A stretch of DNA of 64,000 bases, from the IMG/VR virus record IMGVR_UViG_3300045988_142422, one strand, 5' to 3'. Both the position numbers and the translations under genes were made by a program. The first letter of the stretch is position 1; the number at the start of each line of letters is the position of its first letter. This DNA comes from a virus (taxonomy: Duplodnaviria > Heunggongvirae > Uroviricota > Caudoviricetes). The notes under the pieces are model-generated. The model was not told the DNA's origin. It did no database searches and worked only from the letters and a program-made list of their open reading frames with translations. This document shows, piece after piece, positions 1,820 to 59,977 of this stretch.

Positions 1820-1837
1820 TAGGTAAGTATTTACCTA
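1820..1837. promoter_or_regulatory. Palindromic motif B copy (TAGGTAAGTATTTACCTA) upstream of tail-fibre gene
   Basis: Inverted repeat TAGGTAA/TTACCTA read directly; followed by GC hairpin GGCGGGC-N7-GCCCGCC (1840-1860) and the RBS of the 1882 CDS. Confidence 0.45.
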
Positions 1838-1881
1838 ATGGCGGGCAAGGATAGCCCGCCAAATCAAGGAGCATATTCAAC

Positions 1882-4800
1882 ATGTGGTACAGGGAAGGTA
1901 CTATCACATTTACACAGGGTAGCAATACTCTGGTTGGGGCAGGGACAGCCTGGAACGTAACAGCTAATGGTGTGTTGCCGGGGATGATCGTCATTGGCCC
2001 CGACAATAAGCTGTATGAGATCAAGCGCGTAACCAGTGATACGAACATTGTTCTCTCAGAACCTTATACCGGCGAAACTCAGTCTGAAGTTCCGTGCCGA
2101 ATCATTACGACCTATGAAGGCGACTTAACACAGTTTAGCGCGCGCTTTACAGCACTAATGTCGCGTATGTCGGCTGATTCCAAGTCTATGCGCAGTTGGT
2201 TGACTGCTCTGGATGAGGTGACAATCGAGCGTGAAGACGGTACAGAAGTAACCGTTAAGCCGCTAATGCAGATCGTCAACGAGCACAACGAAAACGTTGA
2301 GTGGTATAAAAATAACACTGACGCGATTGATGCTGCTGGCGACAAAGCTCGTGAGGCGGCGGCCAGTGCTGCCGCAGCAGCAGAAAGCGCCAATACCGCT
2401 GGAGAAAAAGCCTCTCAAGCGTCTCAAAGTGTATCCGCTGCGGCATCCTCACAAAGTGCCGCAAGTGCGAGTGCAACTGCTGCGAAAAAATCTGAAACGA
2501 ATGCCGCAGCGTCACAACAATCAGCAGCCACTTCTGCATCCACCGCGACCACGAAAGCGTCAGAAGCTGCCACCTCAGCCCGGGATGCGGCGGCCTCAAA
2601 AGAGGCAGCGAAATCATCAGAAACGAACGCATCCTTGAGCGCCAGTAGCGCAGCTTCCTCGGCAACGGCGGCAGGAAATTCCGCGAAGGCGGCAAAAACG
2701 TCCGAGACGAACGCCAGGTCTTCTGAGACGGCAGCGGGACAGAGCGCCTCAGCTGCGGCAGGCTCAAAAACAGCGGCTGCGTCGTCTGCCAGTGCCGCGT
2801 CAACAAGTGCCGGGCAGGCCTCAGCCAGTGCCACCGCCGCCGGAAAATCGGCAGAAAGTGCCGCATCGTCTGCTTCAACAGCCACAACGAAGGCTGGCGA
2901 AGCCACTGAACAGGCCAGCGCAGCAGCGAGGTCTGCTTCCGCAGCGAAGACATCCGAAACGAACGCGAAAGCGTCGGAAACCAGCGCAGAATCCTCAAAA
3001 ACGGCTGCCGCATCGTCCGCCAGTTCGGCGGCGTCATCGGCATCATCTGCGTCTGCTTCAAAAGATGAGGCGACCAGACAGGCGTCAGCAGCGAAGGGCA
3101 GTGCCACGACGGCATCCACGAAAGCAACAGAGGCGGCAGGCAGTGCGACGGCAGCATCTCAGAGCAAAACTGCTGCTGAATCCGCTGCGACCCGTGCGGA
3201 AGCTGCTGCTGATCGTGCTGAAGAGATTGCCGGTGCAGTTGCGATGGAAGACGCAAGCCTTACAACTAAAGGTGTTGTGAAACTTAGCAGTGCTGTCGAC
3301 AGCACCAGTGAATCGCTGGCCGCAACGCCAAAAGCAGTTAAAGCAGCCAATGACAATGCGAATAGCAGGGTGCCATCTAACCGAAAAGTTAACGGTAAAG
3401 CACTGACTGCGGATATCACATTAACGCCGAAAGATATTGGTACTTTAAATTCAGTAACGATGTCTTTCTCTGGCGGGGCAGGGTGGTTCAAACTGGCTAC
3501 GGTTACCATGCCACAAGCGAGTTCCATCGTTTACATCGCATTGATTGGTGGCGCTGGTTACAACGTCGGCTCCCCACATCAGGCAGGTATTTCAGAACTG
3601 GTTCTACGAGCAGGCAATGGAAACCCCAAAGGGATTACAGGTGCTTTGTGGAAGCGTACAGCTGTCGGATTAACGAATTTCGCCTGGATCAACACATCCG
3701 GCGATACATATGATATTTACGTTGAGATTGGCAATTATGCGACTCGTGTAAATATCCATTGGGATTGTACTGCAAATGCGACAGTTTCTATTTATACCTC
3801 GCCAACATATTCAGCGAGTAAGCCTTCCAGCGTTACCGATGGTGTTGTTTATACGATGTATAGCTCACATCAGAAACCTACACCATCAGATATTGGAGCA
3901 CTGCCAACAACCGGAGGAACAGTTTCAGGTCCGTTGTCTGTTACAGGTGGATTAACTGGTTCATTGAATGGTAATGCAAGTACAGCCACGAAATTGCAGA
4001 CGGCAAGATCTATCGGTGGAGTTGTTTTCGACGGTTCTGCAAATATTAACCTTCCAGGTGTAAACACTACGGGTAATCAGAACACCACTGGTAATGCTGC
4101 AACTGCTACAAAACTTCAGACGGCAAGAACTATCGGCGGCGTGAGCTTTGATGGTACTGCGAATATTAATTTGCCTGGTGTAAACACGGCAGGTAATCAG
4201 AATACAACGGGCAACGCGGCTACTGCTACGAAGTTGCAAACAGCGAGAAACATCAATGGTGTTAAGTTTGATGGCTCAGGCGATATCAACATTAATACAC
4301 TGGTATCTCGTGGCCGAGTTACGGCGTTAAGTGGCTCTACTCAGGGTACTGCTGGTATTCAAATGTATGAAGCATATAGCAATAATTACCCAACATCATT
4401 CGGCAATGTTCTGCATATGAAAGGGGCGAGTGCTGCTGGTGAGGGCGAGTTGCTTATTGGCTGGAGCGGAACGGATGGTGCTCATGCACCGGTTTATGTT
4501 CGTTCACGCCGTGATACTTCGACAGCGAATTGGTCTGGTTGGGCGCAGGTCTATACCACTGCTCATAAACCCACAGCGAAAGATGTTGGGGCTGCACAGA
4601 CGTTTAGCGCGTCATACAGTACTGGGGCTGGCAACTGGACTACCGCTGAATTTATCGCATGGCTGAAGGAGCGTGGTGCTTTCGCCGTACCGTATTGGAT
4701 GATGAAAGGCTCTTGGTCATATGCCGACAATAAAATTATCACTGATACAGGTGTCGGCAATATTTGTCTTGCTGGTGCGGTTATCGAGGTTTTAGGTCAC

Positions 4801-6270: not shown

Positions 6271-6279
6271 TCAAGGTGA

Positions 6280-7119
6280 ATGGTGAGGGGACACCCTCAC
6301 CAATTCAGGATATTCACATCAAAAAGGAGATTAGATGTGCCAATTGTCGGTGTTCCCGGTTGGATTGGGTCTTCGGCTGTCAGTGTGACAGGCCAGAGAT
6401 GGATGAGTGCGGCTCGAACGGCGGTGCAACTGCCAGCGGCTGGTTCAATGTCTCAAATGGCCGGGCGATCTAAAGAAGTTCAGTACAGCATCGGTGCGAA
6501 TCATAACTACAACAAAGACACACTGATCAACTATTTAAAATCCCAGGGGGCGACGCCAGTCGTTGTTACCATTACAGGGGATCTGGTGTCGTCCAGTAGC
6601 GGCGTGCCATGTTTAGATTTCCCGAGTTCACTTACCAACTCTTATATCAGCCTTGTAATCAACGCAGGTGTGACTGTCTATGGACGCGGTGGCAATGGTG
6701 GTAGTAACGCTGCCGGTGCTGCTGGTGGTAACGCAATTAATAATGGCATCGGTACACGCTTGCGTATTACGAATAATGGTGCAATCGCTGGAGGTGGTGG
6801 CGGCGGTGGCGGCGGTAACAGGGGTAAACTAATATTTGGTGGTGGCGGTGGTCGCCCATTCGGTGCTGGTGGGTCTTCCTCTCATATGAGTTCCGGTGCA
6901 ACTGCTGGTACTATTTCCGCTCCTGGTAAAGGATCTGTTGGTGAGGGGTCTCTTAGTGCATATACAGGCGGTTCGGGTGGTAATGTCGGTGCTGCTGGAG
7001 GAAGATGTAATACTCAAGGTAACGGTACAGAATATAACGGCGGAGCAGCTGGTAAAGCTGTTACTGGTAATGCTCCAACTTGGACTAAAGTTGGGGCAAT
7101 TTACGGCGCTCATGTGTAA
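6280..7119 (+). CDS. Glycine-rich protein of unknown function (possible fibre-associated protein)
   Basis: ORF directly after fibre gene; poly-Gly tracts GGGGGGGGGNRGKLIFGGGGGRPFGAGG; alternative GTG start at 6337 preceded by AAGGAGA. Confidence 0.45.
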   Translation: MVRGHPHQFRIFTSKRRLDVPIVGVPGWIGSSAVSVTGQRWMSAARTAVQLPAAGSMSQMAGRSKEVQYSIGANHNYNKDTLINYLKSQGATPVVVTITGDLVSSSSGVPCLDFPSSLTNSYISLVINAGVTVYGRGGNGGSNAAGAAGGNAINNGIGTRLRITNNGAIAGGGGGGGGGNRGKLIFGGGGGRPFGAGGSSSHMSSGATAGTISAPGKGSVGEGSLSAYTGGSGGNVGAAGGRCNTQGNGTEYNGGAAGKAVTGNAPTWTKVGAIYGAHV

Positions 7120-7193
7120 GTACTTACCTACCAAGTGTGGGCGTTTTATGATATAAAACCGCCATCCCGATTTGACGATTCATGGAGGAAATA

Positions 7194-9761: not shown

Positions 9762-10430
9762 ATGACCAAGATCTTTGTGGTTGGCGGCACAAAGGGCGGG
9801 CCTGGCAAATCCACCGTTGCCCAGCAAATTGCCGTTTGCCTGAAAGTCAAAAAGAAGAAGAAGGTTTATATTACCGATATAGATATTCAGCGCACGACAA
9901 CGAGCTGGTGTGAAGACCGTCGACAGAACGAAGACCTTGAGCTGATTCCTTTTGCATACGTTCAGGATGACATCATTAAGCACCTAAAATCGCTTCAGGG
10001 TAGAGCTGAGTTTGTAGTGGTAGATGCTGGTGGCTTCGACTCCGAAATTCAGCGACAAGCGATGCTGATGGCTGACGTTATCATTATCCCGCTGCGTCCT
10101 AAGCGTCGTGATTTGAAATCTTTACGTGACATCGATCCTATTATCGACAATGTTCGCAATGTAAACGATAAAGTGAAGGTCCGCGCGGTCATGAACCAGT
10201 GCCCGGCTTTGCCATCACAAGTGTCTCGCATTCTGGCGGCTAAAGAGATTGTTGAGACGTTTGGAATCGAGTCTGCGCCAGTCAATCTGTATAACCGCAA
10301 CGTCTATGATGATGCGGAAGAGTCTGGTCGTTCTATCTTTGAAATGACCGGTAGCGAGCGCGACAAAAAGGCGGAAGCCGAGTTTGAAGAATTTGTAGAT
10401 TATCTGTTGAGTCTGGAGGAAGAAGAATAA
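9762..10430 (+). CDS. parA: ParA-family partition ATPase
   Basis: Deviant Walker A GGTKGGPGKST near N-terminus, about 220 aa, followed by small partner gene with ATGA-type overlap. Confidence 0.8.
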   Translation: MTKIFVVGGTKGGPGKSTVAQQIAVCLKVKKKKKVYITDIDIQRTTTSWCEDRRQNEDLELIPFAYVQDDIIKHLKSLQGRAEFVVVDAGGFDSEIQRQAMLMADVIIIPLRPKRRDLKSLRDIDPIIDNVRNVNDKVKVRAVMNQCPALPSQVSRILAAKEIVETFGIESAPVNLYNRNVYDDAEESGRSIFEMTGSERDKKAEAEFEEFVDYLLSLEEEE

Positions 10431-10789
10431 TGTCCATGAAAATGGGTGACCTAGCAAAGCGCAAAGAGCCTGATGCACCGGCTAAGAACACAACTCCTTT
10501 GCGCCAACCAGTCAGACCACAGGGACGCCCGACTCGTGGCAAAGAGAAAATTAAAAGCCGCACAATGTCACTGGAGGACGAATACTTCGAACTGCTGGAG
10601 ATGATGAAGTTCATCCCTCGCTTCGAGAAGTTCACTCGTTCTGACGTGATTCGAGCTGCTATTTTCCATCTTGCGGAGAAGACACCGCAGGAAATCGAGG
10701 ACATCGTGAAACTTAACGAGGCGATCACAGCTGCCGACGTAACGATGCGTACCGATGAAATCAAACGCGAGTTGATGAAGAAGAGTTAA
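10430..10789 (+). CDS. Small partition partner protein (ParB/ParG-like centromere-binding candidate)
   Basis: 119 aa basic N-terminus, start overlaps parA stop (TAATG); position and size typical of type Ib partition adaptor; no motif verified. Confidence 0.45.
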   Translation: MSMKMGDLAKRKEPDAPAKNTTPLRQPVRPQGRPTRGKEKIKSRTMSLEDEYFELLEMMKFIPRFEKFTRSDVIRAAIFHLAEKTPQEIEDIVKLNEAITAADVTMRTDEIKRELMKKS

Positions 10790-11505: not shown

Positions 11506-11868
11506 TCTTAATTCCCTTTCTACGTGATTGGTACATTGTTTATTTCTGGACGTTTCTTAAGTTGTAGACGCTATTCTGTGTCTGAGTAATCTACAATAAT
11601 TTGTTACACTTAACAATGTTGCAACCGTCTGGCGTGCAGCTGTTTTGAAGTAGATCTTAAGGTTGCATACCATGAGACTAAAAACTAGGTTGGGTTGGTT
11701 TTTGACCTGCTTCCGTATATAAATACTAAGTTACTTATTATTATTTATACGGAAGCAGGTCTTTTATCTGCTGACTTCCCAGATACATTCCCTTCCGTTT
11801 CCACTTCCAAAAACTGCCACCAGTCGCTATCATCCGCTCATCGTGATAAGTAAGTAACTACCTACCAG

Positions 11869-12618
11869 GTGAGCCACATGAGCCAAATCTTTTTCGATAC
11901 CATCGACAACTACCAGTACGACTTCATGACAGAGTGGAATACCGCTGTTATGGACAAGTGGGTCGCTGAAAACATTGGTTTGTCGCGCTGTAAAGATGAG
12001 GCTGAACTCTTCGAGACGAAGTGGTTTGATTACCGCGACATGCATCCTCTGATGGCCACCTGTCTATTTACGGAGACATACAAACGTCAGTACTCAAATA
12101 TCATGCTGACGCACGGTCGCGAACACTTTGAAACAGCTCCGTTCACCACCGGGTTAAAACGCCTGCCTTATCAGGAGTTGTCGACTGCCAATAAAACGTC
12201 GCTATGGAAAGCACGCCAGTTTGCTGACCGCTATTGCTGCTCATACGACTACTTTATCTCCACCGTTCTTTCCGCAGCTGCACGACGGCTGTGGGACAAG
12301 CTGCCGCGCCCACAGCATTTATGGCAGCCAGAGCTGATTGAGATATTCGAAGAGAAATTAGCCAGACGCGCAACAACCCGTCTGGATGACTCTCTCGTTA
12401 GCTTTAAGCATATGGGAGACATGCAGTTCAACCCGATTCAGGAAAGCTATTTTGAGTGGATTCTGGAGCGTTTACGCACCATCCCCCGCAGCAAGCGCAT
12501 ACGCGCAATTTTCTCCGCTATCTGGCTAATGGAAATCGTTCCAGAGCGCCTTATTTCCGCCCACTTTCCAGAAGAACTGGAAGAAGCACGGCGGTTTATT
12601 GATCCCCTATCTAATTAA
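11869..12618 (+). CDS. Hypothetical protein (upstream of replicative helicase)
   Basis: 249 aa ORF, GTG start at 11869 or ATG at 11878; motif B copy (11845-11866) immediately upstream. Confidence 0.5.
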   Translation: MSHMSQIFFDTIDNYQYDFMTEWNTAVMDKWVAENIGLSRCKDEAELFETKWFDYRDMHPLMATCLFTETYKRQYSNIMLTHGREHFETAPFTTGLKRLPYQELSTANKTSLWKARQFADRYCCSYDYFISTVLSAAARRLWDKLPRPQHLWQPELIEIFEEKLARRATTRLDDSLVSFKHMGDMQFNPIQESYFEWILERLRTIPRSKRIRAIFSAIWLMEIVPERLISAHFPEELEEARRFIDPLSN

Positions 12619-15262: not shown

Positions 15263-15340
15263 TAACAATCACCTTTAAAATAAGTAGATGATTACTTATC
15301 TTTCTGTGAGAATACTTTCATCTGTTAGCTAGGAGTTGGT

Positions 15341-16117: not shown

Positions 16118-16172
16118 TCTCTCCGCGCGTCGTTTTTTACGCAAATAACGATAGGTAAGTACAAGATTATTT

Positions 16173-16655
16173 ATGGCGGTAGTTGTGAAAGCTGATTTGT
16201 CAAAAATCCCTTCTATTTCAGGAAATAACGGTTATTCACTTCGTTGTGAGGAAGTAAAGATAAACGGTGAGTCGGCATATTGCAGCTATTCCGTTTGCCA
16301 GCACACCATTCTTGCCTTCAAAGAAAACCGTCTTCCTCGAACTTCTTTCCAGTCGTGCGCAACCGCTATTAAAGCAGGCAAATGCAAGGCGTTAAAAATG
16401 ATGGTTGAAGAGATTCGTAAAGGAGAATCTCTGTATTTCGAAGATATGACCGCGCTCATTAAGGAGGTTGAAGAACGGAATAAACAAGCCAGAACTATAA
16501 AACGAAAACGTGACAGTGTAACGATTAATAGCATGGTTAAGAAGAGCACCACATCACAAACAGCGATCACTGACGTGTATGCGGCGTTGCTTGAAGAAAC
16601 AACAAAAGAAACACATGAGCAAATCGATCAACATATGGAGGTAAAACAACAATGA
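16173..16655 (+). CDS. Hypothetical protein
   Basis: 160 aa ORF; stop overlaps ligase start. Confidence 0.5.
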   Translation: MAVVVKADLSKIPSISGNNGYSLRCEEVKINGESAYCSYSVCQHTILAFKENRLPRTSFQSCATAIKAGKCKALKMMVEEIRKGESLYFEDMTALIKEVEERNKQARTIKRKRDSVTINSMVKKSTTSQTAITDVYAALLEETTKETHEQIDQHMEVKQQ

Positions 16656-17974: not shown

Positions 17975-18150
17975 TGCTCGGCTGGATGATTGCATTTTTA
18001 GCAGTTGGTTTTTTCATAGGTATTGTGGTGATGTCCAGTTGCATCAATGACTACATTAAAAGCGGTGTTATAGAAAGACGCGGTCGTATTTATCGCATTG
18101 TAGAAATAACCAACACCCTGAAGGAGATTAAGGATGATCGTATTAAGTAA
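17971..18150 (+). CDS. Small membrane protein (59 aa), translationally coupled to ligase
   Basis: ATGATG start overlaps ligase stop; RBS GGAG; TM segment MLGWMIAFLAVGFFIGIVVM; paralogous to the 18346 ORF. Confidence 0.45.
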   Translation: MMLGWMIAFLAVGFFIGIVVMSSCINDYIKSGVIERRGRIYRIVEITNTLKEIKDDRIK

Positions 18151-18349
18151 ACGGGAGAAGGAAACGCTTCATGAAATCAGTAAGTGGCCGGAGTTCCCTG
18201 AGTACTGGAAGCCTAAAACGCGAGCTAAGTTAGAGCGTTTAGGGTTGGTTGCAAACGTTTCTGAAACGTGGTGTTCGGCCAACTACCAGTTAACTGATAA
18301 AGGGAAAGTATTGCTACAGCAATTAGTAGAATCAGGAGTGTTAAAATGA
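18134..18349 (+). CDS. Hypothetical small soluble protein
   Basis: 71 aa; start overlaps previous small ORF. Confidence 0.45.
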   Translation: MIVLSKREKETLHEISKWPEFPEYWKPKTRAKLERLGLVANVSETWCSANYQLTDKGKVLLQQLVESGVLK

Positions 18350-18794: not shown

Positions 18795-18816
18795 GATAAG
18801 TATTTACTTACTTATC
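18795..18816. promoter_or_regulatory. Palindromic motif B copy (GATAAGTATTTACTTACTTATC)
   Basis: 8-bp arms GATAAGTA/TACTTATC around TTTACT. Confidence 0.45.
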
Positions 18817-19563: not shown

Positions 19564-19638
19564 GATGGTGTAGCTCAGCGGTAGAGCAGTTGGCTGTTAA
19601 CCAACTGGTCGGTGGTTCGAATCCACCCACCATCGCCA
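19564..19638 (+). tRNA. tRNA-Asn (anticodon GTT)
   Basis: Cloverleaf by eye: acceptor GATGGTG/CACCATC, D-arm GCTC/GAGC, anticodon loop CTGTTAA, T-loop GGTTCGAATCC, 3' GCCA. Confidence 0.85.
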
Positions 19639-19640
19639 AT

Positions 19641-19716
19641 GCCGGTTTAGCTCAGTTGGTAGAGCGCCTGCCTTGTAAGCAGGATGTCAGCGGTTCGAGT
19701 CCGTTAACCGGCACCA
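19641..19716 (+). tRNA. tRNA-Thr (anticodon TGT)
   Basis: Acceptor GCCGGTT/AACCGGC, anticodon loop CTTGTAA, T-loop TTCGAGT, 3' ACCA; 2 nt after tRNA-Asn. Confidence 0.85.
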
Positions 19717-19786
19717 ATACAACGATAAGATCATTACGGTTAATCGTCGTTCATGTGCACAATGACTGGTCGAAAGGTAGTGATCT

Positions 19787-19938
19787 TACCGTTGTGGTGG
19801 ATTCGCAGACTGATGCGATAGCTTTCTTGGATGTTAGGGAAATGCGGCCGCAAATCTTCCCTTTCGCGAGCGGTGATCGTCCGTAGTCCTAATTGGCTGC
19901 ACCGTATGCCGGAGATTCAGTACCGGCCACCACAACGG
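19787..19938. other. Long-range inverted repeat (12 bp CCGTTGTGGTGG / CCACCACAACGG) enclosing about 126 nt
   Basis: Arms 19787-19800 and 19927-19938; second arm ends 2 nt before tRNA-Ser. Confidence 0.5.
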
Positions 19939-19940
19939 CC

Positions 19941-20027
19941 GGAGAGTAGGGAGCATGGTGCTCAAGCGGTCTTGAAAACCGTCCCATTGCGCAAGCGATG
20001 ATGGTTCGATTCCATTACTCTCCGCCA
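19941..20027 (+). tRNA. tRNA-Ser (anticodon TGA), long variable arm
   Basis: Acceptor GGAGAGT/ACTCTCC, anticodon loop CTTGAAA, long variable arm, T-loop GGTTCGATTCC, 3' GCCA; D-arm atypical. Confidence 0.7.
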
Positions 20028-20205: not shown

Positions 20206-21114
20206 TTAATGATTGCCTAGATATGATTTTAGTTCTTCTTTAATGATTAGTGAGTATTCTAAAATATCACTTAGTAAAAATTTTGCTCTGTTAAAATACC
20301 CACCAAAAGAACCTAAAATTTCAGATGGTCTTTCTAAGAGCATCACAATATCATCTTCTTGCACTTTAGTAATGTAACTTCTAACAGCTTTTTCTCCAAT
20401 AACTCTTTTCTTACCGTTTATTTCAGATTCATCTAAAACCTTATTTATAAATTTTTCTGTATCATTGAATCGTCCACTATTGTGTACTATTGTATGTCTT
20501 AGTAGTTCAATTAGCTTGATGTTAAAGCGATAGTTTTTGCCAATCTTGTTGTTTGTTTCTATCTCTTTGAAGCCAGGTATTTTATTTCTGAAAATTTTAG
20601 TTATTTTTTTCGATGGGTTACTTTTTGCTTTTAATAATCTGTAATAAACTTCCCTTTTCCCAATTTCATCATCTTCAACCTTACCAAAATCACTTGAGGA
20701 CCATAAATCATTTCGAACACATACAGTATAGACATATATTGCCTCAATATAGTCTTCCAGTAACTCATAGGCTTCAGTAATAACCCACTGATATTGTTTA
20801 TTTTTCAAAGTATTACACAATCTTATCTTTTCTTCTAAATCAATGGCGCTGTTACCTATCTCTAATGTTGAACCTGTATATGGGTTTGAACATAAATGGC
20901 GAGCTAACGTTGTGCCACACTTAATCTTAATAGTTTCATTAATATTAATAATAGTATCTGGATTCTGTGCATACTCCACTTCTTTAAGAAGACGTTTTAT
21001 ATTTTTCTTTGTTGTATCATTTATCTGATTTAAATAGTCAAAAAGTAAAGATATTTCTTCTCTAAATTCGTTGTATTTATTTTCAATCAAAGAATCAGAC
21101 AACTTACCAATCAT
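20206..21114 (-). CDS. AT-rich hypothetical protein with HEPN-like R-x4-H motif (candidate abortive-infection/defence protein)
   Basis: 302 aa, Lys/Asn/Ile-rich, markedly lower GC than flanks; motif LLRHTIVHNSG; isolated on minus strand between tRNA cluster and glutaredoxin. Confidence 0.3.
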   Translation of the reverse strand: MIGKLSDSLIENKYNEFREEISLLFDYLNQINDTTKKNIKRLLKEVEYAQNPDTIININETIKIKCGTTLARHLCSNPYTGSTLEIGNSAIDLEEKIRLCNTLKNKQYQWVITEAYELLEDYIEAIYVYTVCVRNDLWSSSDFGKVEDDEIGKREVYYRLLKAKSNPSKKITKIFRNKIPGFKEIETNNKIGKNYRFNIKLIELLRHTIVHNSGRFNDTEKFINKVLDESEINGKKRVIGEKAVRSYITKVQEDDIVMLLERPSEILGSFGGYFNRAKFLLSDILEYSLIIKEELKSYLGNH

Positions 21115-21287
21115 TAAAACCTCTATAAAATGTACATTTCAAGGCAATCCTTACTGTAATCTATTGTCGTAATCACTTCAATTGTTTACTAGTCAATCAA
21201 TAAGTTACTACATACTTATCAAAAAAATCTGTTTGTAGTATAGTCTGATATGTTCGAATCAATATTTATAAAGGTATTTGTTAAGTT

Positions 21288-21563: not shown

Positions 21564-21743
21564 TCCCACCAAACCACTCCTGTTTCCCTTAAAATTCAAA
21601 AAACAACGTCTAAATGATTCCATACCTACTATGTATGGAATCATTGCTGAAAATGAGTTACTTTTACTCTTGATCCTATAAGAATCTATGCCTAATATAC
21701 TGTTTACTTATACAGTGCATCGGCGTAACTCGGTGATTGTCAT

Positions 21744-22847
21744 ATGAAAAATAGCTTTGACAGAGCACGCGCTGCGGAGAACACCTCAAAAGAGGCGATA
21801 GAGTATCTCGAAAGAGCATCTCAAATGCAGGCCGTTATGATCTCCCAGGTCAGCAATGACATGAGATTCTCGGACGCATTCATGTTATTCACTCGCTTAT
21901 CTCTGCTGATAACCAGACGTCGGCCAGAGATCGCTGTTCATTGTATTTTGATACATGTTTTGCCGCACATTGCCGATGTAAAAGTAAGTGACATTAATAG
22001 GTTCATGGTGAACCAACTGGTCAACCCACTAATACTGGATGGCAAAATTGTTATGGGCCGCCGCGTTTTCTCTCTGATGAAGCAGTTCCTTAGCTGGTGC
22101 GCCTTCCAGGGGATGATAGACGTGTCACCGTTAAACGATATGTCACTTAACAAAGTTGCCGGTGGCGCAAAGCCCACACCTCGCGAGCGGAAGCTGACCG
22201 ACGCAGAGGTATGGGTGTTCTGGAATATATGGGACTACTTCAATGTGTGTGCTGGTACAAAATGGGCGGCCAGGCTATGTCTTGTATCCGCAAGACGACC
22301 TGACGAAGTACTGCGGGCTAAAAAAAGTGAGTTCAATCTTAAGCGTGGGGTTTGGAATCAAGGCAAGAGGAACAAATCTGCCCGTGAGCATTCTCTGCCT
22401 TTAAGCTCATTAATGCGCACTTGTATTGAAGAGTTGTTCGAATATGGTAAAGACAGCCAGTGGCTCGTGCCTTCGAATAAAAAAATCGGGAAAGACCTTC
22501 CTATGTCTAAAGTGGCAATAGCCCAGGCATTACGTCGTATTCTGGAACGACCAGAACTGATGGAGCTTGAGCCATTTACACCCCGAGATTTGCGCCGTAC
22601 TGCGCGTAGTTACTTCCCAGCATTAGGCATAAGCCAGGAGGTATCACGTAAAATCATGAACCACAGTCTTGAGGGGATAGATCGGGTCTACGACCGGCAC
22701 GATTATATGGACGAGATGCGAGACGCCTTAGAAAGTTTCTCGACGTACATCGCATCAATCGTAGAGCAACCGGATTTAGACGAAATTGACCACAAATTTA
22801 AGGGAGATCGTCTATCAACAGAGCTTATTCGTGTAAATTTTTCATAG
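21744..22847 (+). CDS. Tyrosine recombinase (integrase or resolvase)
   Basis: C-terminal catalytic region DLRRTARSYF...HSLEGIDRVYDRHDY with R..H..Y signature. Confidence 0.7.
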   Translation: MKNSFDRARAAENTSKEAIEYLERASQMQAVMISQVSNDMRFSDAFMLFTRLSLLITRRRPEIAVHCILIHVLPHIADVKVSDINRFMVNQLVNPLILDGKIVMGRRVFSLMKQFLSWCAFQGMIDVSPLNDMSLNKVAGGAKPTPRERKLTDAEVWVFWNIWDYFNVCAGTKWAARLCLVSARRPDEVLRAKKSEFNLKRGVWNQGKRNKSAREHSLPLSSLMRTCIEELFEYGKDSQWLVPSNKKIGKDLPMSKVAIAQALRRILERPELMELEPFTPRDLRRTARSYFPALGISQEVSRKIMNHSLEGIDRVYDRHDYMDEMRDALESFSTYIASIVEQPDLDEIDHKFKGDRLSTELIRVNFS

Positions 22848-23228
22848 AGACTTTATGGCCTCAACAACCTTTTGTGATGCGCCTTTCTCTTTACCGAATC
22901 GCTCGTTATATGCAGCAAGAACCTGTTTTTCGTCCTCGTTAAGAGGAGCAGTGCCTTCTTTGTATAAAAATGCTGCGAGTTCGGGTTGGCGTTCTTCCAG
23001 CACCATCATCATAAGACGACTTGGCTCAATGCCCAGTGCCAGCGCCAGCGGACGAACCTTATCGATAGGCAAAGGAATTTTGCCGCTTTTAATTAAAGAA
23101 AGGTTGTTGGCGTTTTTATACCCAATTGTTTTGGCTATCTGGGCCTGGCTCATAGGTGAGGATTCAATCAACCCTGCGATAAAAGCAGCGTAGCGACTTT
23201 CTATAAATTCAATCTTGTTATCAGACAT
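22842..23228 (-). CDS. HTH (XRE-family) transcriptional regulator, candidate repressor
   Basis: Helix-turn-helix MSQAQIAKTIGYKNANNLSLIKSGK; divergent from downstream plus-strand genes across a 560-bp AT-rich intergenic region. Confidence 0.6.
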   Translation of the reverse strand: MSDNKIEFIESRYAAFIAGLIESSPMSQAQIAKTIGYKNANNLSLIKSGKIPLPIDKVRPLALALGIEPSRLMMMVLEERQPELAAFLYKEGTAPLNEDEKQVLAAYNERFGKEKGASQKVVEAIKSL

Positions 23229-23479
23229 GGTTACAACCTTTGCGCGTTCAATTCTCTCTGGTAAGTGCTTACCGATATTACATCAAAGGTTAGGGTTGTA
23301 AAGCTATTATCATTTTTTTCGATAGGCACTTAAAAGACCGGTTAAAGGCCATTGCACGGAGAAAAATTAGCCCAAAATAGGTAAGAAAATCAACTTGCAT
23401 ATGATATGAATGTATTCAGTATTGATACAAATTTTAGTAGTATTCCTTACCATAGTATAAGTTAGAATGGATTGATTGA

Positions 23480-25899: not shown

Positions 25900-25994
25900 T
25901 TAAAACAACCTTAATGATAAGTAACTACTTACCATAGTTAATGGTATATTTATATAAGAACTTGAACGCTCATTAGAGAACAAAGGAAAAGCGC

Positions 25995-33317: not shown

Positions 33318-33346
33318 GATAGATAATAAGTAAGTACTGATCTATC
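33318..33346. promoter_or_regulatory. Palindromic motif B copy (GATAGAT...ATCTATC)
   Basis: 7-bp arms flanking AATAAGTAAGTACTG, 84 nt upstream of SSB gene. Confidence 0.4.
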
Positions 33347-36836: not shown

Positions 36837-36897
36837 CTCTTGAAAGTATATAAGTACTTACTTATTATTTTCACATAACAACCACATAGGAAAACAC

Positions 36898-37098
36898 ATG
36901 ATCAAAATCTATCTATTGGCAGTAGCCACAGGCCTTTCAGTGGCTCTCATCTACGGTTTACTGGTTCCGTCGCTGATTTCTACCAAGAGTGATTTAGCCG
37001 TCATGTTTGGAGTTATCGTTGGTTTTGGTGCTCCTGTAATCGGTCTTATTGCTGGTCGTAAGTTTATCAACTCATTAATCAAAGCAAAGGGGAAATAA
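36898..37098 (+). CDS. Small two-helix membrane protein
   Basis: 66 aa, almost entirely hydrophobic; ATG after AGGAAAACAC; 3 nt before SPFH gene. Confidence 0.5.
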   Translation: MIKIYLLAVATGLSVALIYGLLVPSLISTKSDLAVMFGVIVGFGAPVIGLIAGRKFINSLIKAKGK

Positions 37099-38780: not shown

Positions 38781-38820
38781 GTTTACAGTAAAATTTATAT
38801 AAGTTAGTATCTACCTATCA

Positions 38821-42476: not shown

Positions 42477-42730
42477 CCCTCCAGATCGTATATTGGCGTA
42501 GATAGAATCTACGCCCCCTCAAAATAGCTCTCATAGCGTTCTACAGTGATCCTGTCTTATTTTTAGTCATACAGACAAGCAAAGTTGCGCCACGATAAAT
42601 AGGTATATACTTACTTATAAATTTTGTATATTAAGGCGCTCGTTTCATTCCTAACATACCGTTATGCATAGTTGTTTACCTCCTCATTGCTCTTAGAATT
42701 TGTATCAAAATAACCACAAAGGAAAAATAC

Positions 42731-47274: not shown

Positions 47275-47308
47275 TTTCATTGATAGGTAAGTGCTTATCT
47301 ATTAACAT

Positions 47309-47338
47309 GGGCCACTATATTTAGTGGCCCTCTTTATT
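47309..47338 (+). terminator. Rho-independent terminator
   Basis: GGGCCACTA-TATT-TAGTGGCCC then TCTTTATTTG. Confidence 0.7.
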
Positions 47339-51952: not shown

Positions 51953-52029
51953 ATCTATCTGGCCTTGTTCCCTCAATAAATGTAAACTCACTTAATGAAT
52001 AAGTGGTTACTTATCTTTGTGAGGTTTTT

Positions 52030-53133
52030 GTGTCACTCCTTTTGAATCGTGAGCATACGAACGGTCAGGTAACAAACGCATCGTATGCAAAAGTTATTGA
52101 GACGGTGCTTAAAAGCGGCGTGCAGGCTGATGATCGCACAGGCACTGGTACTTTAAGCACCTGCTACGTTCCCTCTTACTACATGCTTACTGGTGGGACT
52201 GTGCCGCTTATTTCTGGAAAGGCGGTAAATCTTAAGCCACTGCTTGTCGAACTTGAGTGGTATCTGAAAGGCACGGGCAACATCCAATTTCTCAAGGATA
52301 ACGGCGTTAAGATTTGGGATGCATGGGCCGATGAGAATGGCGATTTGGGGCCGGTTTACGGTAAGCAGTGGCGTCGATGGGAAGATACCCGCATCGTGAG
52401 CCATAGTGAATATCTGAGCAAGATCGATACTTTCCGTGAACGCGGGTACAAAGTCGAGGGATACCTGGGTATCAGTGAAGATCGCGTAGTGCTGTCCCGT
52501 GAAATCGATCAGCTACAGCGTATTGTCGATACACTGCGCACGAACCCTACCGATCGTCGCATCATGCTTAACGCATGGAACGTAGGCGAGCTTGAGGATA
52601 TGAAACTGCCACCTTGCCACTTTGTCTTCTCTTTGTGGAGTCGTGAGCTGGATTTTGAAACCCGTTTAACGATGGCAACTGACATTGGTCTTCAACACAG
52701 TCGCCTCGGTTACGAGTCTATCTACACCAAGATGCTATACGATCTGGAGATGGACGGCAGTGTTACTGAAGCTGAACTGGATGAACTTGGAATCCCCAAA
52801 CGCATCCTCAACTCCTGCCTCGTACAGCGTAGCGTAGACACTTTTGTTGGTATGCCATTCAATATTGCTGGCTATGGCATTCTCACTCATTTTCTCGCGA
52901 AGATTACGGGTCACATGGCCGGTGCATTTGTGCATTTTGGCTTTGACGTGCATTTGTACAACAACCACATGGAAGGTGTGTGTGAGCTAATGAAACGACA
53001 AGCTCCAGAGCATTCAGATCCGGTCGTTATTTTCCCTCATGAATGGTCAGAGTTGGATGATTTCAAATGGGACGAGGTTTTAATTCTTGGCTATGACCCT
53101 CTACCGTGGATCAAGGTTCCAGTGGCGGTGTGA
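52030..53133 (+). CDS. thyA: Thymidylate synthase (ThyA family, with insertions)
   Basis: DRTGTGT, IWDAWADENGDLGPVYGKQWR, catalytic LPPCH, GMPFNIA, HLYNNH; start set at GTG 52030 because motif B overlaps the 52003 GTG. Confidence 0.85.
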   Translation: MSLLLNREHTNGQVTNASYAKVIETVLKSGVQADDRTGTGTLSTCYVPSYYMLTGGTVPLISGKAVNLKPLLVELEWYLKGTGNIQFLKDNGVKIWDAWADENGDLGPVYGKQWRRWEDTRIVSHSEYLSKIDTFRERGYKVEGYLGISEDRVVLSREIDQLQRIVDTLRTNPTDRRIMLNAWNVGELEDMKLPPCHFVFSLWSRELDFETRLTMATDIGLQHSRLGYESIYTKMLYDLEMDGSVTEAELDELGIPKRILNSCLVQRSVDTFVGMPFNIAGYGILTHFLAKITGHMAGAFVHFGFDVHLYNNHMEGVCELMKRQAPEHSDPVVIFPHEWSELDDFKWDEVLILGYDPLPWIKVPVAV

Positions 53134-55146: not shown

Positions 55147-55155
55147 GGAGTAGTA

Positions 55156-56495: not shown

Positions 56496-56501
56496 AACAA
56501 A

Positions 56502-57463: not shown

Positions 57464-57614
57464 CGTTCCCCTACTGAAAATAAAGCCCATAGAGAGCTTT
57501 ATAGTACTGGGTAAGCCAATCACATACCCAGCACCACAAAAACGCGCCAGAGAGCTTCTCGTTTGCATTTCTGGCGCGTTTTATTTGATTGCCAGACATA
57601 AAATCAAACGCAAA

Positions 57615-57636
57615 AATAGGTATTTACTTACCTATC
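57615..57636. promoter_or_regulatory. Palindromic motif B copy (AATAGGTATTTACTTACCTATC)
   Basis: Arms ATAGGTA/TACCTAT; ends 10 nt before ATG of methyltransferase gene. Confidence 0.45.
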
Positions 57637-57646
57637 GAGAAAGAAG

Positions 57647-58240
57647 ATGATTGCAGCCGAAAAAATCAAACAGCGAAAGCGCGACAACTCTCTTCGTGAC
57701 CTCTGGAGAACACCTGACTGGCTGTTTTCTGCCATTCAACGTTATCTTGGAGTGACATTTGATGTTGACGTTGCCTGCAACAAGGACAATGCAAAGCTGC
57801 CTAATTTCATAGGCGTTGAGCGTGATGCTTTGAAATCTGAATGGGGACAGCCAGGTACAATTGCCTTCCTCAATCCACCCTACTCCAAAATCTCCCCCTG
57901 GATTGATGCGGCTATACGTGAGCAGGCTCGCGGAGTTACAACAGTGATGCTAATTCCTCAATCCCTAGATACAAAGTGGTATGAGCGTGCAACAGAGTGT
58001 GCGAATGAGACGATTATTCTGTCTGGTGGCCGCGTAGCGTTTGTCGAGCCTGACGTAAATCTGGGTCAGGTAGAAGTAAACATCAACCCAGGTGGCAGTA
58101 TGCTCGTTGTTTTTCGAGGATTCTGTCAGGACGCTGGGCACTCTATAAGCAAGATCCCTTTGGACGTCATGAAAAGTCTGGGAGGGTATGATCCTGCGAA
58201 TGTGATCAGGAAAAAAAGACCATCAAAGAAGGCTGCTTAG
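57647..58240 (+). CDS. DNA N6-adenine methyltransferase (phage Dam-type)
   Basis: WRTPDWLF N-terminal motif and catalytic NPPYS. Confidence 0.7.
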   Translation: MIAAEKIKQRKRDNSLRDLWRTPDWLFSAIQRYLGVTFDVDVACNKDNAKLPNFIGVERDALKSEWGQPGTIAFLNPPYSKISPWIDAAIREQARGVTTVMLIPQSLDTKWYERATECANETIILSGGRVAFVEPDVNLGQVEVNINPGGSMLVVFRGFCQDAGHSISKIPLDVMKSLGGYDPANVIRKKRPSKKAA

Positions 58241-58425
58241 TTTGTTCTGGCGTCTGTAATTAGCCTGCTTCTGTATATATAAATAACTACATATTAATTA
58301 TTAATATACGGAAGCAGGCTGTTTTGTATCAGAGACTCCAGACCTGAACATCACTACAGAATCCACTAGAACCCCTTCCCAGACGCTTTAAAATCGATTT
58401 TATGAACCACTTTAAGGAAACCAAC

Positions 58426-58656
58426 ATGTCATACCCGACTAATGTCGTTGCGCTCGTAGAGAGCGATTTTCTGGCCCAGGCTCGTGAAATGATGAAAGAT
58501 CGTGAGCAGGCTTTCAACTTGTACGAATGGGCAATTAAGTGCTTGCATCTTGGCGAGCATCGCGAACTTGTTGAACAGCTTTTAGGTGAGTTGATCAATG
58601 AGGTGTTTGCCTTGAATGTTCAACTACATGGTAGAGAAAATAATCAATCACAATGA
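58426..58656 (+). CDS. Hypothetical small protein
   Basis: ATG after AAGGAAACC; 76 aa. Confidence 0.45.
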   Translation: MSYPTNVVALVESDFLAQAREMMKDREQAFNLYEWAIKCLHLGEHRELVEQLLGELINEVFALNVQLHGRENNQSQ

Positions 58657-59238
58657 TAGATAAGTACAAACTATTCATAAAGTGAATTGTAAGTGCTAAG
58701 ATCTGATAGTTTCCAGTCGTAGACTGGAGACTCGACCTGATGGGTGGGGGTAAGCGTCACTGGCGTCAGGTTTAAAAAAGCTCACTACCAGCGTAGAACT
58801 GGTGCCGTTTAGGTGTCGGGGAAGGGGGAACCAAAGTGAGCAGAGACAAGGGTCACTTTATGATTGTCGAGTCTGGGGGGTTTCGAGAGGTTGAATCCAG
58901 TACTCCCCTTCATAAAGTGTGGGAAGATCTCGGTTCTGGGGTGCTGTCATCCATAACTTCCCAAGTCTAAGCTGGCAGTAGACTTAGACCATAACTTTTC
59001 AGGTTATGAAACGACCAGGTTGGTGAGAGATTTTTATACTCACCTCCCTGGGAGAGTATTACCTGAAAAGACAACCTCTCACTTCGTTCGAGGTGAACTT
59101 CACTCACTTCGTTCGTTCAGTTCAGGTTTATAAAAACCTGTTCTGGGAAGTAATTTGTTTATTTTAATAATTATTAACACGCACGCGTGTGCGCACGCGC
59201 GAGGAAAAATCGGCGCGGCGCTTGATTCAGGAGTTTAT
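58657..59238. other. ORF-free, G-tract-rich structured region with alternating purine-pyrimidine tract (candidate ncRNA, pac or origin element)
   Basis: No ORF of 60 aa or more on either strand in 58657-59154; GGGGG runs near 58742, 58817, 58873, 58938; 13-bp direct repeat CTCACTTCGTTCG at 59078 and 59103; (CG/CA)n tract 59177-59201. Confidence 0.4.
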
Positions 59239-59829
59239 ATGACGACGAAGACACCAGCCCGATCGCAAGCAAAAACTCGCAAAAAAGCCAAAAACAAAAA
59301 TTCCCCCCGCACCAATCCCACAACGCCTGTCGTAGAGTTCAATCCCCAGCTTAAAACCGTGAAAATCTTTAGTGATGGCTCTTGCCTTAAAAATCCGGGT
59401 GGCCCGGGCGGTTACGGTATCGTTCTCCAGTATCGTGGTGAGGAACGCGAGTTCTCAGATGGTTTTCATAGCACCACCAATAACCGCATGGAGATGATGG
59501 GGGCACTTATCGGGCTGGAGCGTTTGAAATATCCATGCAACGTTATTTTGCACTCTGATAGCCAGTATCTGAAAAACGGCATGACACAGTGGATGAAATG
59601 GTGGAAACGCAATGGATGGATGACTTCTGACAAAAAACCGGTAAAGAATGTTGATCTGTGGAAGCGTCTGGATGAGGCCGCAAGTCGACATAATGTTCGC
59701 TGGAAGTGGGTTAAAGGTCACGCCGGGCATCGTGAAAATGAAATATGTGATCGACTCGCGAAGATCGCAGCTTTTTCAGCAGCAGATATGCCTCACAAGA
59801 AAGATATTGGTTTTGTTTATAACAAATAG
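59239..59829 (+). CDS. rnhA: Ribonuclease HI
   Basis: ATG after AGGAG; basic N-terminal linker then [18 protein letters not shown]...HSDSQYL...[17 protein letters not shown]. Confidence 0.85.
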
Positions 59830-59977
59830 TAAGTAAGTGTTTACCTATCATTTTAAATCATGTATCTTATCGGCGTCAGGATGACAATGTGTCGGTAAGA
59901 CACAGTTCCAGGATGGAACGAGAAAGGCGGCTGGCAATCGCCAGCCGCAACTCTTTCTGACACTGGATGGAGTCCAC

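Follow-up and report, generated by a model that had tools for sequence, protein, structure and literature searches.

A family of 20-bp intergenic palindromes in an SSU5-like phage-plasmid and a self-encoded Xre-type protein as its candidate reader

A single palindromic motif between the genes

The window, that is the whole stretch of 64,000 nucleotides analysed here, shares about 98% identity with Escherichia phage Cyrano, which belongs to the SSU5-like phage-plasmids. Its genes range from tail and holin genes to helicase, primase, RecA-like, nrdA and thyX genes, and include a gene for a small helix-turn-helix (HTH) protein placed tail-to-tail with, and overlapping, an integrase gene. Between the genes lie copies of a 20-bp palindrome, ATARGTAAGTACTTACYTAT, with the pattern ATARGTA-N6-TACYTAT. 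These palindromes are a real family of one motif, with about 17-20 intergenic copies in the window (about one per 4 kb) and about 27 in the whole genome. The fifteen copies listed in the first-pass annotation are all present where it placed them; sites 23257..23276 and 38799..38818 were absent from its list, as were the weaker sites at 11719, 58279 and 58656. The sites and the HTH gene are as follows.

1819..1838: palindrome ATAGGTAAGTATTTACCTAA, in the gap that separates the tail host-specificity gene from the tail fibre gene (start 1882); a GC hairpin comes after it; orthologues at Cyrano 22448 and SSU5 21937
7112..7131: palindrome ATGTGTAAGTACTTACCTAC, whose 12-bp core GTAAGTACTTAC is perfect; it precedes the holin gene (7182), and a conserved TGATATAAAA stands 17 nt past the site
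11846..11865: palindrome ATAAGTAAGTAACTACCTAC; 12 nt further on, the ATG at 11878 opens the gene preceding the DnaB-like helicase gene
15280..15299: exact-pattern palindrome ATAAGTAGATGATTACTTAT, in the gap after the primase gene; 6 nt past the site begins an extended -10-like TGTGAGAAT
16151..16170: half-degenerate copy ATAGGTAAGTACAAGATTAT, separated by 2 nt from the ATG at 16173
18796..18815: exact-pattern palindrome ATAAGTATTTACTTACTTAT, upstream of the tRNA-Asn/Thr/Ser cluster (19564-20027), with TATAAGAT 8 nt downstream
21200..21219: palindrome ATAAGTTACTACATACTTAT, in the divergent region between 20206-21114 (minus strand) and 21288 (plus strand), overlapping the -35 of a promoter-like TTATCA-17-TATAGT
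22842..23228, minus strand: gene for a 128-aa Xre-family HTH protein, the candidate binder, with recognition region GYKNANNLSLIKSG
23257..23276: core-only site TCTGGTAAGTGCTTACCGAT, in the HTH gene promoter
25917..25936: palindrome ATAAGTAACTACTTACCATA, between CobT-like and CobS-like genes, with TATATT 8 nt downstream
33326..33345: palindrome ATAAGTAAGTACTGATCTAT, between a UvsY-like gene and a gp32-like SSB gene
36846..36865: palindrome GTATATAAGTACTTACTTAT, perfect over its 16-bp part ATAAGTACTTACTTAT; it follows the RecA-like gene and lies 32 nt upstream of the ATG at 36898
38799..38818: strong palindrome ATAAGTTAGTATCTACCTAT, 1 nt before the ATG at 38820; orthologues at SSU5 58074 and pJN2-26 104805
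42599..42618: exact-pattern palindrome ATAGGTATATACTTACTTAT, between an ASCH-domain gene and an SbcD-like gene, with TATATT 8 nt downstream
47283..47302: palindrome ATAGGTAAGTGCTTATCTAT, between a RuvC-like gene and nrdA, followed by a conserved terminator-like hairpin
51995..52014: palindrome ATGAATAAGTGGTTACTTAT, 15 nt before the thyX GTG at 52030 (start inferred from the Cyrano gene length)
57616..57635: exact-pattern palindrome ATAGGTATTTACTTACCTAT, 11 nt upstream of the adenine methyltransferase gene and directly preceded by a promoter-like TTGCCA-17-AAAAAT (read by eye)
58656..58675: weaker copy ATAGATAAGTACAAACTATT of uncertain membership, conserved at Cyrano 78477 and SSU5 78709
59829..59848: palindrome GTAAGTAAGTGTTTACCTAT, after an RNase H-like gene

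The full consensus, ATAAGTAAGTACTTACTTAT, has a TA step every 4 bp, and each half-site consists of a pair of xTxAGT hexamers that overlap with an offset of 4 bp. Conservation is strongest in the outer ATA/TAT, A1, T2 and A3 being kept in 85-100% of sites and G9 in 48-79%; at the first base of the outer hexamer A dominates over G, and the central 6 bp vary from site to site. The perfect 12-bp core GTAAGTACTTAC occurs at 7112 and 23261 in the window and at five sites in pJN2-26. At the variable positions 4/17 of the half-sites, 83 sites gave 33 A-T, 18 A.C, 17 G-C and 15 G.T combinations (Fisher p=0.12). This independent variation indicates that the half-sites would be read by a protein, and speaks against RNA base pairing. 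The first-pass annotation had supposed variable spacers and several site classes, a view replaced here by one fixed 20-bp geometry: a spacer of 6 is the only enriched length, and the 'short' copies have either one degenerate outer half or a 4-bp register ambiguity. The apparent matches with spacers of 2 and 10 echo the 4-bp internal periodicity.

Allowing up to 2 mismatches, the window holds 16 matches, against 0.60 expected from dinucleotide shuffles (largest shuffle count 3) and 0.15 under an intergenic-composition null. All 16 are intergenic and none falls in the 58 kb of coding sequence, intergenic DNA amounting to 10.1% of the window. With a weight matrix (PWM) and a deliberately generous set of open reading frames, 17 of 22 matches were intergenic (p=3e-14). 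The intergenic placement proposed earlier is thereby confirmed, and the frequency in coding DNA does not equal that between genes. Most sites end 1-84 nt before the next start codon; the full range is 1-130 nt.

A -10-like hexamer stands at a fixed distance of about 8 nt past sites 15280, 18796, 25917 and 42599, where it is conserved in relatives, and also past Cyrano site 84620. These fixed-spacing sites have no -35 match, and their dyad centre falls near -30. Recognisable promoter geometry belongs to a subset (15280, 18796, 21200, 23257, 25917, 42599 and 57616); many sites have no recognisable promoter, including those in Cyrano structural-gene gaps and those 1-15 nt before start codons.

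Conservation of the sites among relatives

The site family spans the whole genome, with about 25-29 sites in each of Cyrano, SSU5, Klebsiella pJN2-26 and the distant pC714_2, at orthologous intergenic positions despite diverged flanks. Beyond the window, the palindromes extend into the structural and lysis genes. In an Acinetobacter phage-plasmid, about 30 sites share this architecture and stand at orthologous positions, with the altered motif ATCAGTCAGTACTGACTGAT. One site separates the helicase gene from the parB-like operon at Cyrano 105107, pJN2-26 34779, pC714_2 37296 and Acinetobacter 31167. The gene order of the genome is conserved.

In nickie, a virulent and syntenic phage, both the palindrome family and the HTH/integrase module are absent, and the ParB-like, ABC-ATPase and terminase-associated DNA-binding genes are kept.

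The HTH protein encoded at 22842-23228

The HTH protein matches PHROG 8 ('transcriptional regulator', E=1e-11) and Pfam HTH_19 (E=8e-4, under the curated cut-off). Its AF2 model (pLDDT 77) shows the Xre five-helix fold with extra C-terminal helices. A PDB sequence search with the protein returned nothing and Foldseek with the model gave no match at E<=0.001; the nearest solved neighbours, weak matches with a best E of about 9e-3, include C-proteins, HigA, P22 c2 and 434 repressor. The Xre regulators C.Esp1396I, C.AhdI, C.BclI, HigA, P22 c2 and 434 repressor share the five-helix fold with the model at a Foldseek E of about 1e-2 and 13-25% sequence identity, the C-terminal helices being additional in the HTH protein. 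These regulators bind palindromic operators as dimers, and C-proteins bind as two adjacent dimers; none of them is known to control a genome-wide set of sites.

On the minus strand, the gene is preceded by a promoter-like sequence with -35 TTTACA (23302-23297) and -10 TAATAT (23280-23275). Site 23257..23276 lies immediately downstream of this -10, and we infer that it is an autoregulatory operator of the gene. Indeed, a core palindrome is present within 150 bp upstream of the HTH start in all 79 of 79 related IMG/VR loci, over protein identities of 56-100%. In pJN2-26 the core lies upstream of the HTH gene (90499), and in pC714_2 and the Acinetobacter element several sites lie upstream of the gene.

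The HTH gene was found in 865 plasmids, its taxon counts being equal to those of the family's SSB gene; essentially all plasmid-state relatives carry it. The lytic isolate SSU5 alone is without the integrase and HTH module, and its junction was found in 0 of 822 plasmids. The protein is therefore dispensable for lytic growth, which favours a repressor over an activator. Furthermore, the Acinetobacter homologue (48% identity) has KRPNV in the recognition region where the enteric protein has KNANN, and the motif has changed as well.

Candidate binders and possible effects

On comparative grounds, we consider it moderately probable that the palindromes are operators of the phage-plasmid's own repressor, most likely the Xre-type HTH protein. 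In the plasmid-prophage state this protein would bind the 20-bp dyad as a dimer, or perhaps as a pair of dimers, since each half-site is made of two overlapping hexamers offset by 4 bp, and would occupy the window sites together with the remainder of the genome-wide set. Several sites would cover -40 to -21 of sigma70-type promoters that have a good -10 and no -35, while others would closely follow a promoter or immediately precede a ribosome-binding site, so that occupancy could block initiation or elongation and silence replication, nucleotide-metabolism, recombination, lysis and structural units. At the core site over the HTH transcript start, binding would result in negative autoregulation. 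A dimeric regulator acting at scattered, C1-like lysogeny operators had already been proposed in the first-pass annotation; this is the best-supported reading on comparative evidence, although promoter geometry is seen at a subset of sites only. The HTH protein it named is likewise the best candidate on such grounds (79 of 79 promoter cores, co-distribution, SSU5, nickie and Acinetobacter).

P1 is a plasmid prophage silenced by C1 at many operators over about 100 kb. The arrangement proposed here would resemble it in having one repressor and many dispersed operators before replication, DNA-metabolism and other lytic functions. However, the P1 operators are asymmetric 17-mers, in contrast to the 20-bp dyads found here; the candidate repressor belongs to the small Xre-type HTH proteins and is not C1-type, with no sequence relationship seen; and here structural and lysis genes too have sites between them. 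We found no description of a P1-style silencing network for the SSU5-like phage-plasmid family.

Several observations count against the HTH protein as binder. In SSU5 the HTH gene is gone and yet the complete set of high-scoring sites persists, which fits this assignment only after a recent deletion or with a second factor that also uses the sites. The many sites with no recognisable promoter and the Pfam match under the curated cut-off also weigh against it. Recognition helix and motif changed together in one event only, and not in a clear-cut way: a Photorhabdus relative keeps the motif ATAAGTAA although it has Lys at the position of the enteric Asn and the Acinetobacter Arg. Moreover, the sequence class of the motif is otherwise used by TetR-family proteins including SlmA, and an HTH homologue stood beside such palindromes in 0 of 120 loci from many phyla.

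That the binder is instead another protein of the element, such as the neighbouring tyrosine recombinase, a small winged-helix protein (18134-18349 or the homologue of Cyrano CYRAN_123) or the ParB_N proteins, we judge unlikely. The 7-bp arms and 6-bp spacer resemble a recombinase core site, and the integrase is co-distributed with the HTH gene, being present with the palindromes and absent from SSU5 and nickie; yet recombination among about 27 dispersed sites would scramble the genome, whose gene order is conserved instead, and the differing central 6 bp would block strand exchange. CYRAN_123 is unusually conserved (78% identity in pC714_2), whereas no homologue of the 18134-18349 winged-helix protein or of a Cra-like protein was detected in the Acinetobacter element. 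ParB_N proteins could form a global regulator with a centromere set, as in KorB of RK2 and the N15 SopB centromeres, where scattered palindromic sites join global silencing with maintenance and the binders are of the ParB family. The scattering of palindromic sites over a plasmid or phage-plasmid is common to these systems and ours, a site lies next to the parB-like operon in all lineages, and SSU5, with its sites, also keeps the ParB-like gene. Nevertheless, the ParB_N genes, like the ABC-ATPase and terminase-associated DNA-binding genes, persist in nickie without palindromes, and Pfam finds in the ParB-like proteins the ParB_N domain only, with no recognised HTH.

A host protein could also be the reader. 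The sites might be binding sequences (SBS) for the nucleoid-occlusion factor SlmA, recruited by the element to shield a low-copy plasmid from the septum, to block host division via replicating phage DNA, or as a repressor titrated by copy number, and this we find quite unlikely. The first-pass annotation did not consider the SlmA/TetR-type character of the motif. The likeness to the SBS/TetR-type operator class RTAAGTRAGYRCTYACTTAY consists in a 20-bp dyad with a pyrimidine-purine step every 4 bp, and the consensus ATAAGTAAGTACTTACTTAT is identical to the SBS consensus GTAAGTGAGCGCTCACTTAC at 14 of 20 positions (PMC4423959). SlmA binds as a dimer of dimers (PMC4423959), which suits the overlapping-hexamer layout here. 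In vitro it tolerates any purine at position 3 and any pyrimidine at position 6 (PMC3020112); the inner differences from SBS fall at these tolerant positions, so the core GTAAGTACTTAC would be an allowed high-affinity SlmA site. The 12-bp SBS core GTRAGY-RCTYAC is matched with 0-1 mismatches in 7 window sites and 14 of 24 pJN2-26 sites, and the perfect cores in both genomes agree with this. A PWM built from phage-plasmid sites only gives chromosomal SBS17 12.6 bits and SBScons 13.2 bits (chance about 5e-6 per random 20-mer). Of 120 loci from many phyla with this 20-mer class, 75 have a TetR/SlmA-like gene beside it. E. coli K-12 carries slmA, and SlmA with SBS on multicopy plasmids blocks division while an SBS in a promoter represses it (PMC3573117).

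In keeping with recruitment from the host, the element encodes no SlmA/TetR homologue: SlmA and six TetR queries gave no match at E<=0.1 in four enteric phage-plasmid genomes and the window, except for a 35-bit match to a non-HTH part of one TetR query inside an annotated exonuclease gene, and the TetR recognition-helix pattern was not found in these sequences. The absence of a TetR-like gene from the element is also a difference from other loci of this operator class. However, Acinetobacter has no SlmA orthologue (PMC7481262, PMC13060281), and its phage-plasmid nevertheless has the site family at orthologous positions, so SlmA cannot be the family-wide binder; these sites carry C at hexamer position 3, where E. 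coli SlmA is reported to take any purine. Nor are the SlmA-critical bases (hexamer positions 1, 2, 4 and 5) the best conserved: the outer A1-T2-A3 exceeds G9, which is the critical SBS position 5, the first base of the outer hexamer is mostly A and not G, and the phage-plasmid PWM gives SBS12 a score of -3 bits. Nearly all sites are intergenic, against 2 of 24 E. coli SBS (PMC5519180), and they occur about once per 4 kb, against about one per 100-200 kb (24-52 sites) on the chromosome. Finally, autoregulation explains the sites at the HTH gene's promoter better than SlmA does. SlmA cross-talk in enterobacteria is possible.

A role of the palindrome as activator site, or within a special middle or late promoter, analogous to the T4 MotA box (near -30) or the P1 Lpa site, is very unlikely. 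The -10-like hexamers about 8 nt past four window sites and Cyrano 84620, with no -35 and a dyad centre near -30, would suit such a role, but most sites lack a -10 at this spacing, several end 1-15 nt before a start codon so that transcription from such a promoter would begin within the gene, nickie does without the site although its gene modules are the same, and, if the HTH protein is the binder, SSU5 grows lytically without it.

An RNA hairpin serving as processing site, weak terminator or translational operator (e.g. for the FljA-like protein of the element) is highly improbable: all sites lie in sense transcripts between genes, many near ribosome-binding sites and several before a T-rich run, and Cyrano encodes an FljA-family protein (PF03614, E=1e-80), but the arms keep their sequence rather than their pairing (18 A.C mismatches in 83 sites at pair 4/17, with no significant covariation), the stems are of 7 A/T-rich pairs, no homologue of the FljA-like gene was detected in the Acinetobacter element, and the HTH-promoter site lies in a divergent, minus-strand context.

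Distribution and placement of the palindrome family

The 64-kb window comes from an SSU5-like phage-plasmid, as shown by its identity of 97-98% to Escherichia phage Cyrano, known as pLF82 in E. coli LF82, and of about 80% to Salmonella phage SSU5. It begins with the tail tip genes, after which come those for lysis, partition and replication, an integrase/HTH module, and the genes for DNA polymerase, recombination, plasmid RepA and nucleotide metabolism. Ciprofloxacin induces Cyrano, a low-copy plasmid prophage, 39-fold (bioRxiv 10.1101/2022.10.28.514194). SSU5-like phage-plasmids, which include pHCM2, pMT1, pLF82/Cyrano and relatives from Klebsiella and Enterobacter, are present in hundreds of clinical isolates; the SSB gene of the family occurs in 976 plasmid records and the HTH gene in 865.

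All fifteen palindromes listed in the first-pass annotation were found at their positions. The full 20-bp consensus is ATAAGTAAGTACTTACTTAT, following the pattern ATARGTA-N6-TACYTAT and containing five TA steps 4 bp apart. At the 6-bp spacer there are four exact copies, seven with one mismatch and five with two, and none at most other spacings. The same annotation had allowed for several site classes with differing spacers, a view that does not hold: only the spacer of 6 is enriched, and spacers of 2 and 10 echo the internal 4-bp periodicity. These 16 matches compare with 0.60 expected from dinucleotide shuffles of the window. Moreover, the bias towards intergenic DNA noted at first reading proved complete, with 16 of 16 matches intergenic and none in 58 kb of coding sequence; intergenic DNA makes up about 10% of the window, and its composition predicts 0.15 matches. 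A position-weight matrix (PWM) adds a few weak copies, a strong site at 38799 and one at 23257 that has only the core.

The family extends over related genomes: the whole Cyrano genome has about 29 sites, SSU5 about 26 and Klebsiella phage pJN2-26 28, and a further 25 occur in pC714_2, a distant Klebsiella plasmid with an SSB of only 42% identity. The sites fall at orthologous junctions, where they form conserved islands within diverged intergenic DNA, and in Cyrano they include the gaps after the large terminase and major capsid genes, the gap ahead of the holin and others between tail genes. Hardly any site lies in the variable accessory region of Cyrano (85-105 kb). In IMG/VR, the 39 exact matches to the 20-mer all lie in SSU5-like contigs, and the virulent pseudomonad phage nickie, which has the same gene order, has no palindrome family at all.

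The placement of the sites relative to promoter-like elements is mixed. At four of them a -10-like hexamer starts about 8 nt past the dyad without a matching -35, so that the dyad spans roughly -40 to -21; relatives keep this layout.

-10-like hexamers past four dyads (site, hexamer)
15280: GAGAAT
18796: TATAAG/TAAGAT
25917: TATATT
42599: TATATT

The dyad at 21200 overlaps a -35, the one at 57616 comes after a promoter-like TTGCCA-17-AAAAAT spotted by eye, and the one at 23257 comes after the -10 of the promoter-like site of the HTH gene. Other sites end 1-15 nt ahead of a start codon, or are found in gaps between structural genes where no promoter is visible. Such mixed placement is better explained by operators, for which many positions are workable, than by activator sites, whose geometry has to be fixed.

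A candidate repressor in the integrase/HTH module

On balance, the best explanation of the palindromes is that they are operators of a candidate repressor encoded by the HTH gene, a reading we hold to be somewhat more probable than all others together.

22842-23228, minus strand: Xre-type HTH protein, 128 aa; weak Pfam HTH_19 match under the curated cut-off; PHROG 8 'transcriptional regulator', E=1e-11

The AF2 model of the protein has a pLDDT of 77, and its nearest folds are C-proteins, HigA, P22 c2 and the 434 repressor, with no Foldseek match at E<=0.001. A core site is present at the HTH promoter both in the window and in pJN2-26. In 79 of the 79 IMG/VR loci that encode a homologue (56-100% identity), the 150 bp upstream of the HTH gene contain the core RRTAAGnnCTTACC. 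The taxon counts of the HTH and SSB genes are alike (Klebsiella 348/347, Escherichia 230/224, Enterobacter 92/92, Yersinia 63/63, Salmonella 49/49). The integrase and HTH module is missing only from SSU5, a lytic isolate whose tRNA-cobT junction was found in 0 of 822 related plasmids. The HTH gene is therefore dispensable for lytic growth, as expected of a repressor but not of an activator, and the loss explains why SSU5 lacks a candidate lysogeny module. The virulent nickie likewise has neither module nor palindromes, a joint absence that ties the two together.

The Acinetobacter phage-plasmid NZ_CP149832.1 carries about 30 scattered sites at orthologous junctions, such as the helicase-parB gap and the one ahead of sbcD, with the motif changed to ATCAGTCAGTACTGACTGAT (34 matches against 3.7 expected). 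Three or four variant palindromes cluster at 82512-83474, upstream of the HTH regulator gene and between it and the next genes, in what looks like an immunity region. The HTH proteins of the Acinetobacter and enteric elements are 48% identical, and their recognition regions read KRPNVLSM and KNANNLSL, respectively. The Asn-to-Arg change alongside the A:T-to-C:G change in the motif is suggestive of covariation between helix and motif, as a single event. A Photorhabdus relative has Lys at this position yet keeps the enteric motif; Photorhabdus and Serratia fragments share the motif, with slightly different helices. A scan of IMG/VR for further covariation events gave close relatives only, and a Thauera match turned out to be an unrelated conjugative plasmid.

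In the plasmid state, the HTH repressor would sit on the dyads, and its occupancy would stop promoters or the passage of transcripts at about 27 junctions, keeping the lytic programme off; it would also limit its own synthesis. Each half-site can be read as two overlapping xTxAGT hexamers at a 4-bp offset, and the two are altered jointly in the Acinetobacter version (positions 3 and 7). Such an arrangement hints at four reading heads, that is, two dimers per site. SlmA, the TetR-type nucleoid-occlusion inhibitor of host division, and some C-proteins also bind one site as two dimers. For induction, one possibility is convergent transcription driven by the SOS response, because the integrase gene (21744-22847) converges on the HTH gene and runs into its 3' end. 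A LexA-box-like sequence, TACTGTTTACTTATACAGT (21698-21716), overlaps the -10 of a promoter-like TTGATC-17-TAATAT of the integrase gene, within 21670-21716, and is a possible SOS input to the lysis-lysogeny switch. A Serratia relative has a LexA-like box upstream of its own integrase gene (locus L257, 11551), and Cyrano has one ahead of its S24-peptidase gene (89277).

Networks of scattered operators under one repressor are already known as a kind, the model being P1 C1, and the first-pass annotation had proposed a dimeric regulator of lysogeny on that pattern. In the literature searched, we found no description of an operator, regulon or lysogeny mechanism for the SSU5 family, nor an earlier account of this motif or candidate repressor. 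Our work defines a 20-bp operator, names a candidate repressor and maps about 27 junctions proposed as controlled; together, these results make the lysis-lysogeny switch of the SSU5 family directly testable.

Resemblance to the SlmA-binding site

The palindrome consensus is identical at 14 of 20 positions to the SlmA-binding (SBS) consensus, GTAAGTGAGCGCTCACTTAC (PMC4423959). SlmA tolerates any purine at position 3 and any pyrimidine at position 6 of its hexamer (PMC3020112), and the inner differences between the two consensus sequences fall at these positions; GTAAGTACTTAC is therefore an allowed SlmA core. Furthermore, a PWM built from the phage-plasmid sites alone gives chromosomal SBS17 12.6 bits and SBScons 13.2 bits, scores reached by about 5e-6 of random 20-mers; SBS12 scores -3 bits. 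From this likeness, the tolerance of SlmA and the PWM scores, SlmA is predicted to bind, probably, at least the perfect-core sites. Multicopy plasmids that carry SlmA-SBS complexes block division, and a promoter with an SBS placed inside it is repressed (PMC3573117).

As the main binder of the palindromes, host SlmA was nevertheless demoted, since the Acinetobacter element has the site family in a host whose genus lacks a SlmA orthologue (PMC7481262, PMC13060281). Hexamer position 3, at which E. coli SlmA is reported to take any purine, is also a pyrimidine in the Acinetobacter motif. In the enteric sites the outer A1-T2-A3 are kept at 85-100%, whereas the SlmA-critical G9 is kept at 48-79%, and the palindromes are almost all intergenic, in contrast to 2 of 24 chromosomal SBSs (PMC5519180). 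The site at the HTH promoter, finally, reads naturally as autoregulation.

SlmA could still act as a second layer in enterobacteria, where the operators would double as SlmA sites, with about 27 dyads per plasmid copy either shared between the repressor and SlmA or contested by them; we regard this dual use as rather unlikely. The repressor, when present, would mask the SlmA-like sites, and induction would yield hundreds of replicating genomes with thousands of exposed SBS-like sites, by which SlmA could be activated or titrated and division blocked. Alternatively, SlmA might help to silence the low-copy plasmid or couple it to septation. Both positions at which the Acinetobacter half-site differs, 3 and 7, correspond to hexamer position 3 (a pyrimidine) in a host without SlmA, as would be expected if SlmA had shaped the enteric motif. 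The likeness suggests a possible, testable link between plasmid prophage and host cell division, and the relevance of the system rests on this link and on the clinical spread of the SSU5-like family.

A pattern scan of 185,579 genomes for RTAAGTRAGYRCTYACTTAY gave at least 120 loci in many phyla, the matches listed falling before the enterobacterial chromosomes. Among the matches listed, 75 of 120 have a TetR/SlmA-like gene within 600 bp, with the dyad often between TTGACA and the -10, and the HTH regions of these TetR-like proteins resemble that of SlmA. RTAAGTRAGYRCTYACTTAY is thus a widespread operator type beside TetR-family genes that encode a SlmA-like recognition helix, with examples in Acidobacteriota, Bacillota, Actinomycetota and Pseudomonadota, and from this occurrence in several phyla the SlmA site looks inherited from an old TetR subfamily. 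Searches of the element itself for a hidden TetR-like protein, by tblastn or recognition-helix pattern, gave nothing convincing.

Other candidate readers and neighbouring elements

ParB/KorB-like or terminase-associated proteins are weakened as binders by nickie, in which the ParB-like, ABC-ATPase and terminase-associated DNA-binding genes persist without the integrase/HTH module or the palindromes. The gene after parA (10430-10789), annotated as RelE/ParE in Cyrano, has no Pfam match and belongs to PHROG 5111, function unassigned; from its sequence it looks more like a small ribbon-helix-helix centromere-binding partner of type Ib ParA.

Action as an RNA hairpin, or translational control of the FljA type, was rejected for want of pairing covariation. 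At positions 4/17, the sole freely variable pair, 93 distinct sites include 33 A-T, 18 A.C, 17 G-C and 15 G.T, and covariation is not significant; what is conserved in the arms is the sequence and not the pairing. This pattern is what independent reading of half-sites by a protein would predict, and it argues against a hairpin. A further reason for rejecting FljA-type control is the fljA-like gene, which has no site and no detectable homologue in the Acinetobacter element. In Cyrano this gene (100780-101301, outside the window) encodes a full-length 'repressor of phase-1 flagellin' (FljA) family protein (PF03614, E=1e-80) from a promoter without a palindrome, and may serve in lysogenic conversion by an effect on host flagellin.

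Three further elements lie close to palindromes or weak copies of the motif. An extended -10-like box, TGATATAAAA (7147-7157), 17 nt past the palindrome upstream of the holin, is kept in SSU5, pJN2-26 and pC714_2; the lysis operon may have its promoter here. A terminator-like hairpin, GGGCCACTatatttAGTGGCCC, followed by a T-run (47309-47338), stands between a palindrome and the nrdA start and is kept in four of four enteric genomes. A long inverted repeat, CCTGCTTCCGTAT...ATACGGAAGCAGG, with an AT-rich loop of about 35 nt, occurs at about 11700-11760 and about 58262-58320, with weak motif copies inside the loops (11719, 58279); it is kept in SSU5 (33473, 78319) and pJN2-26 (74858, 15285), and looks like an element separate from the palindrome family.
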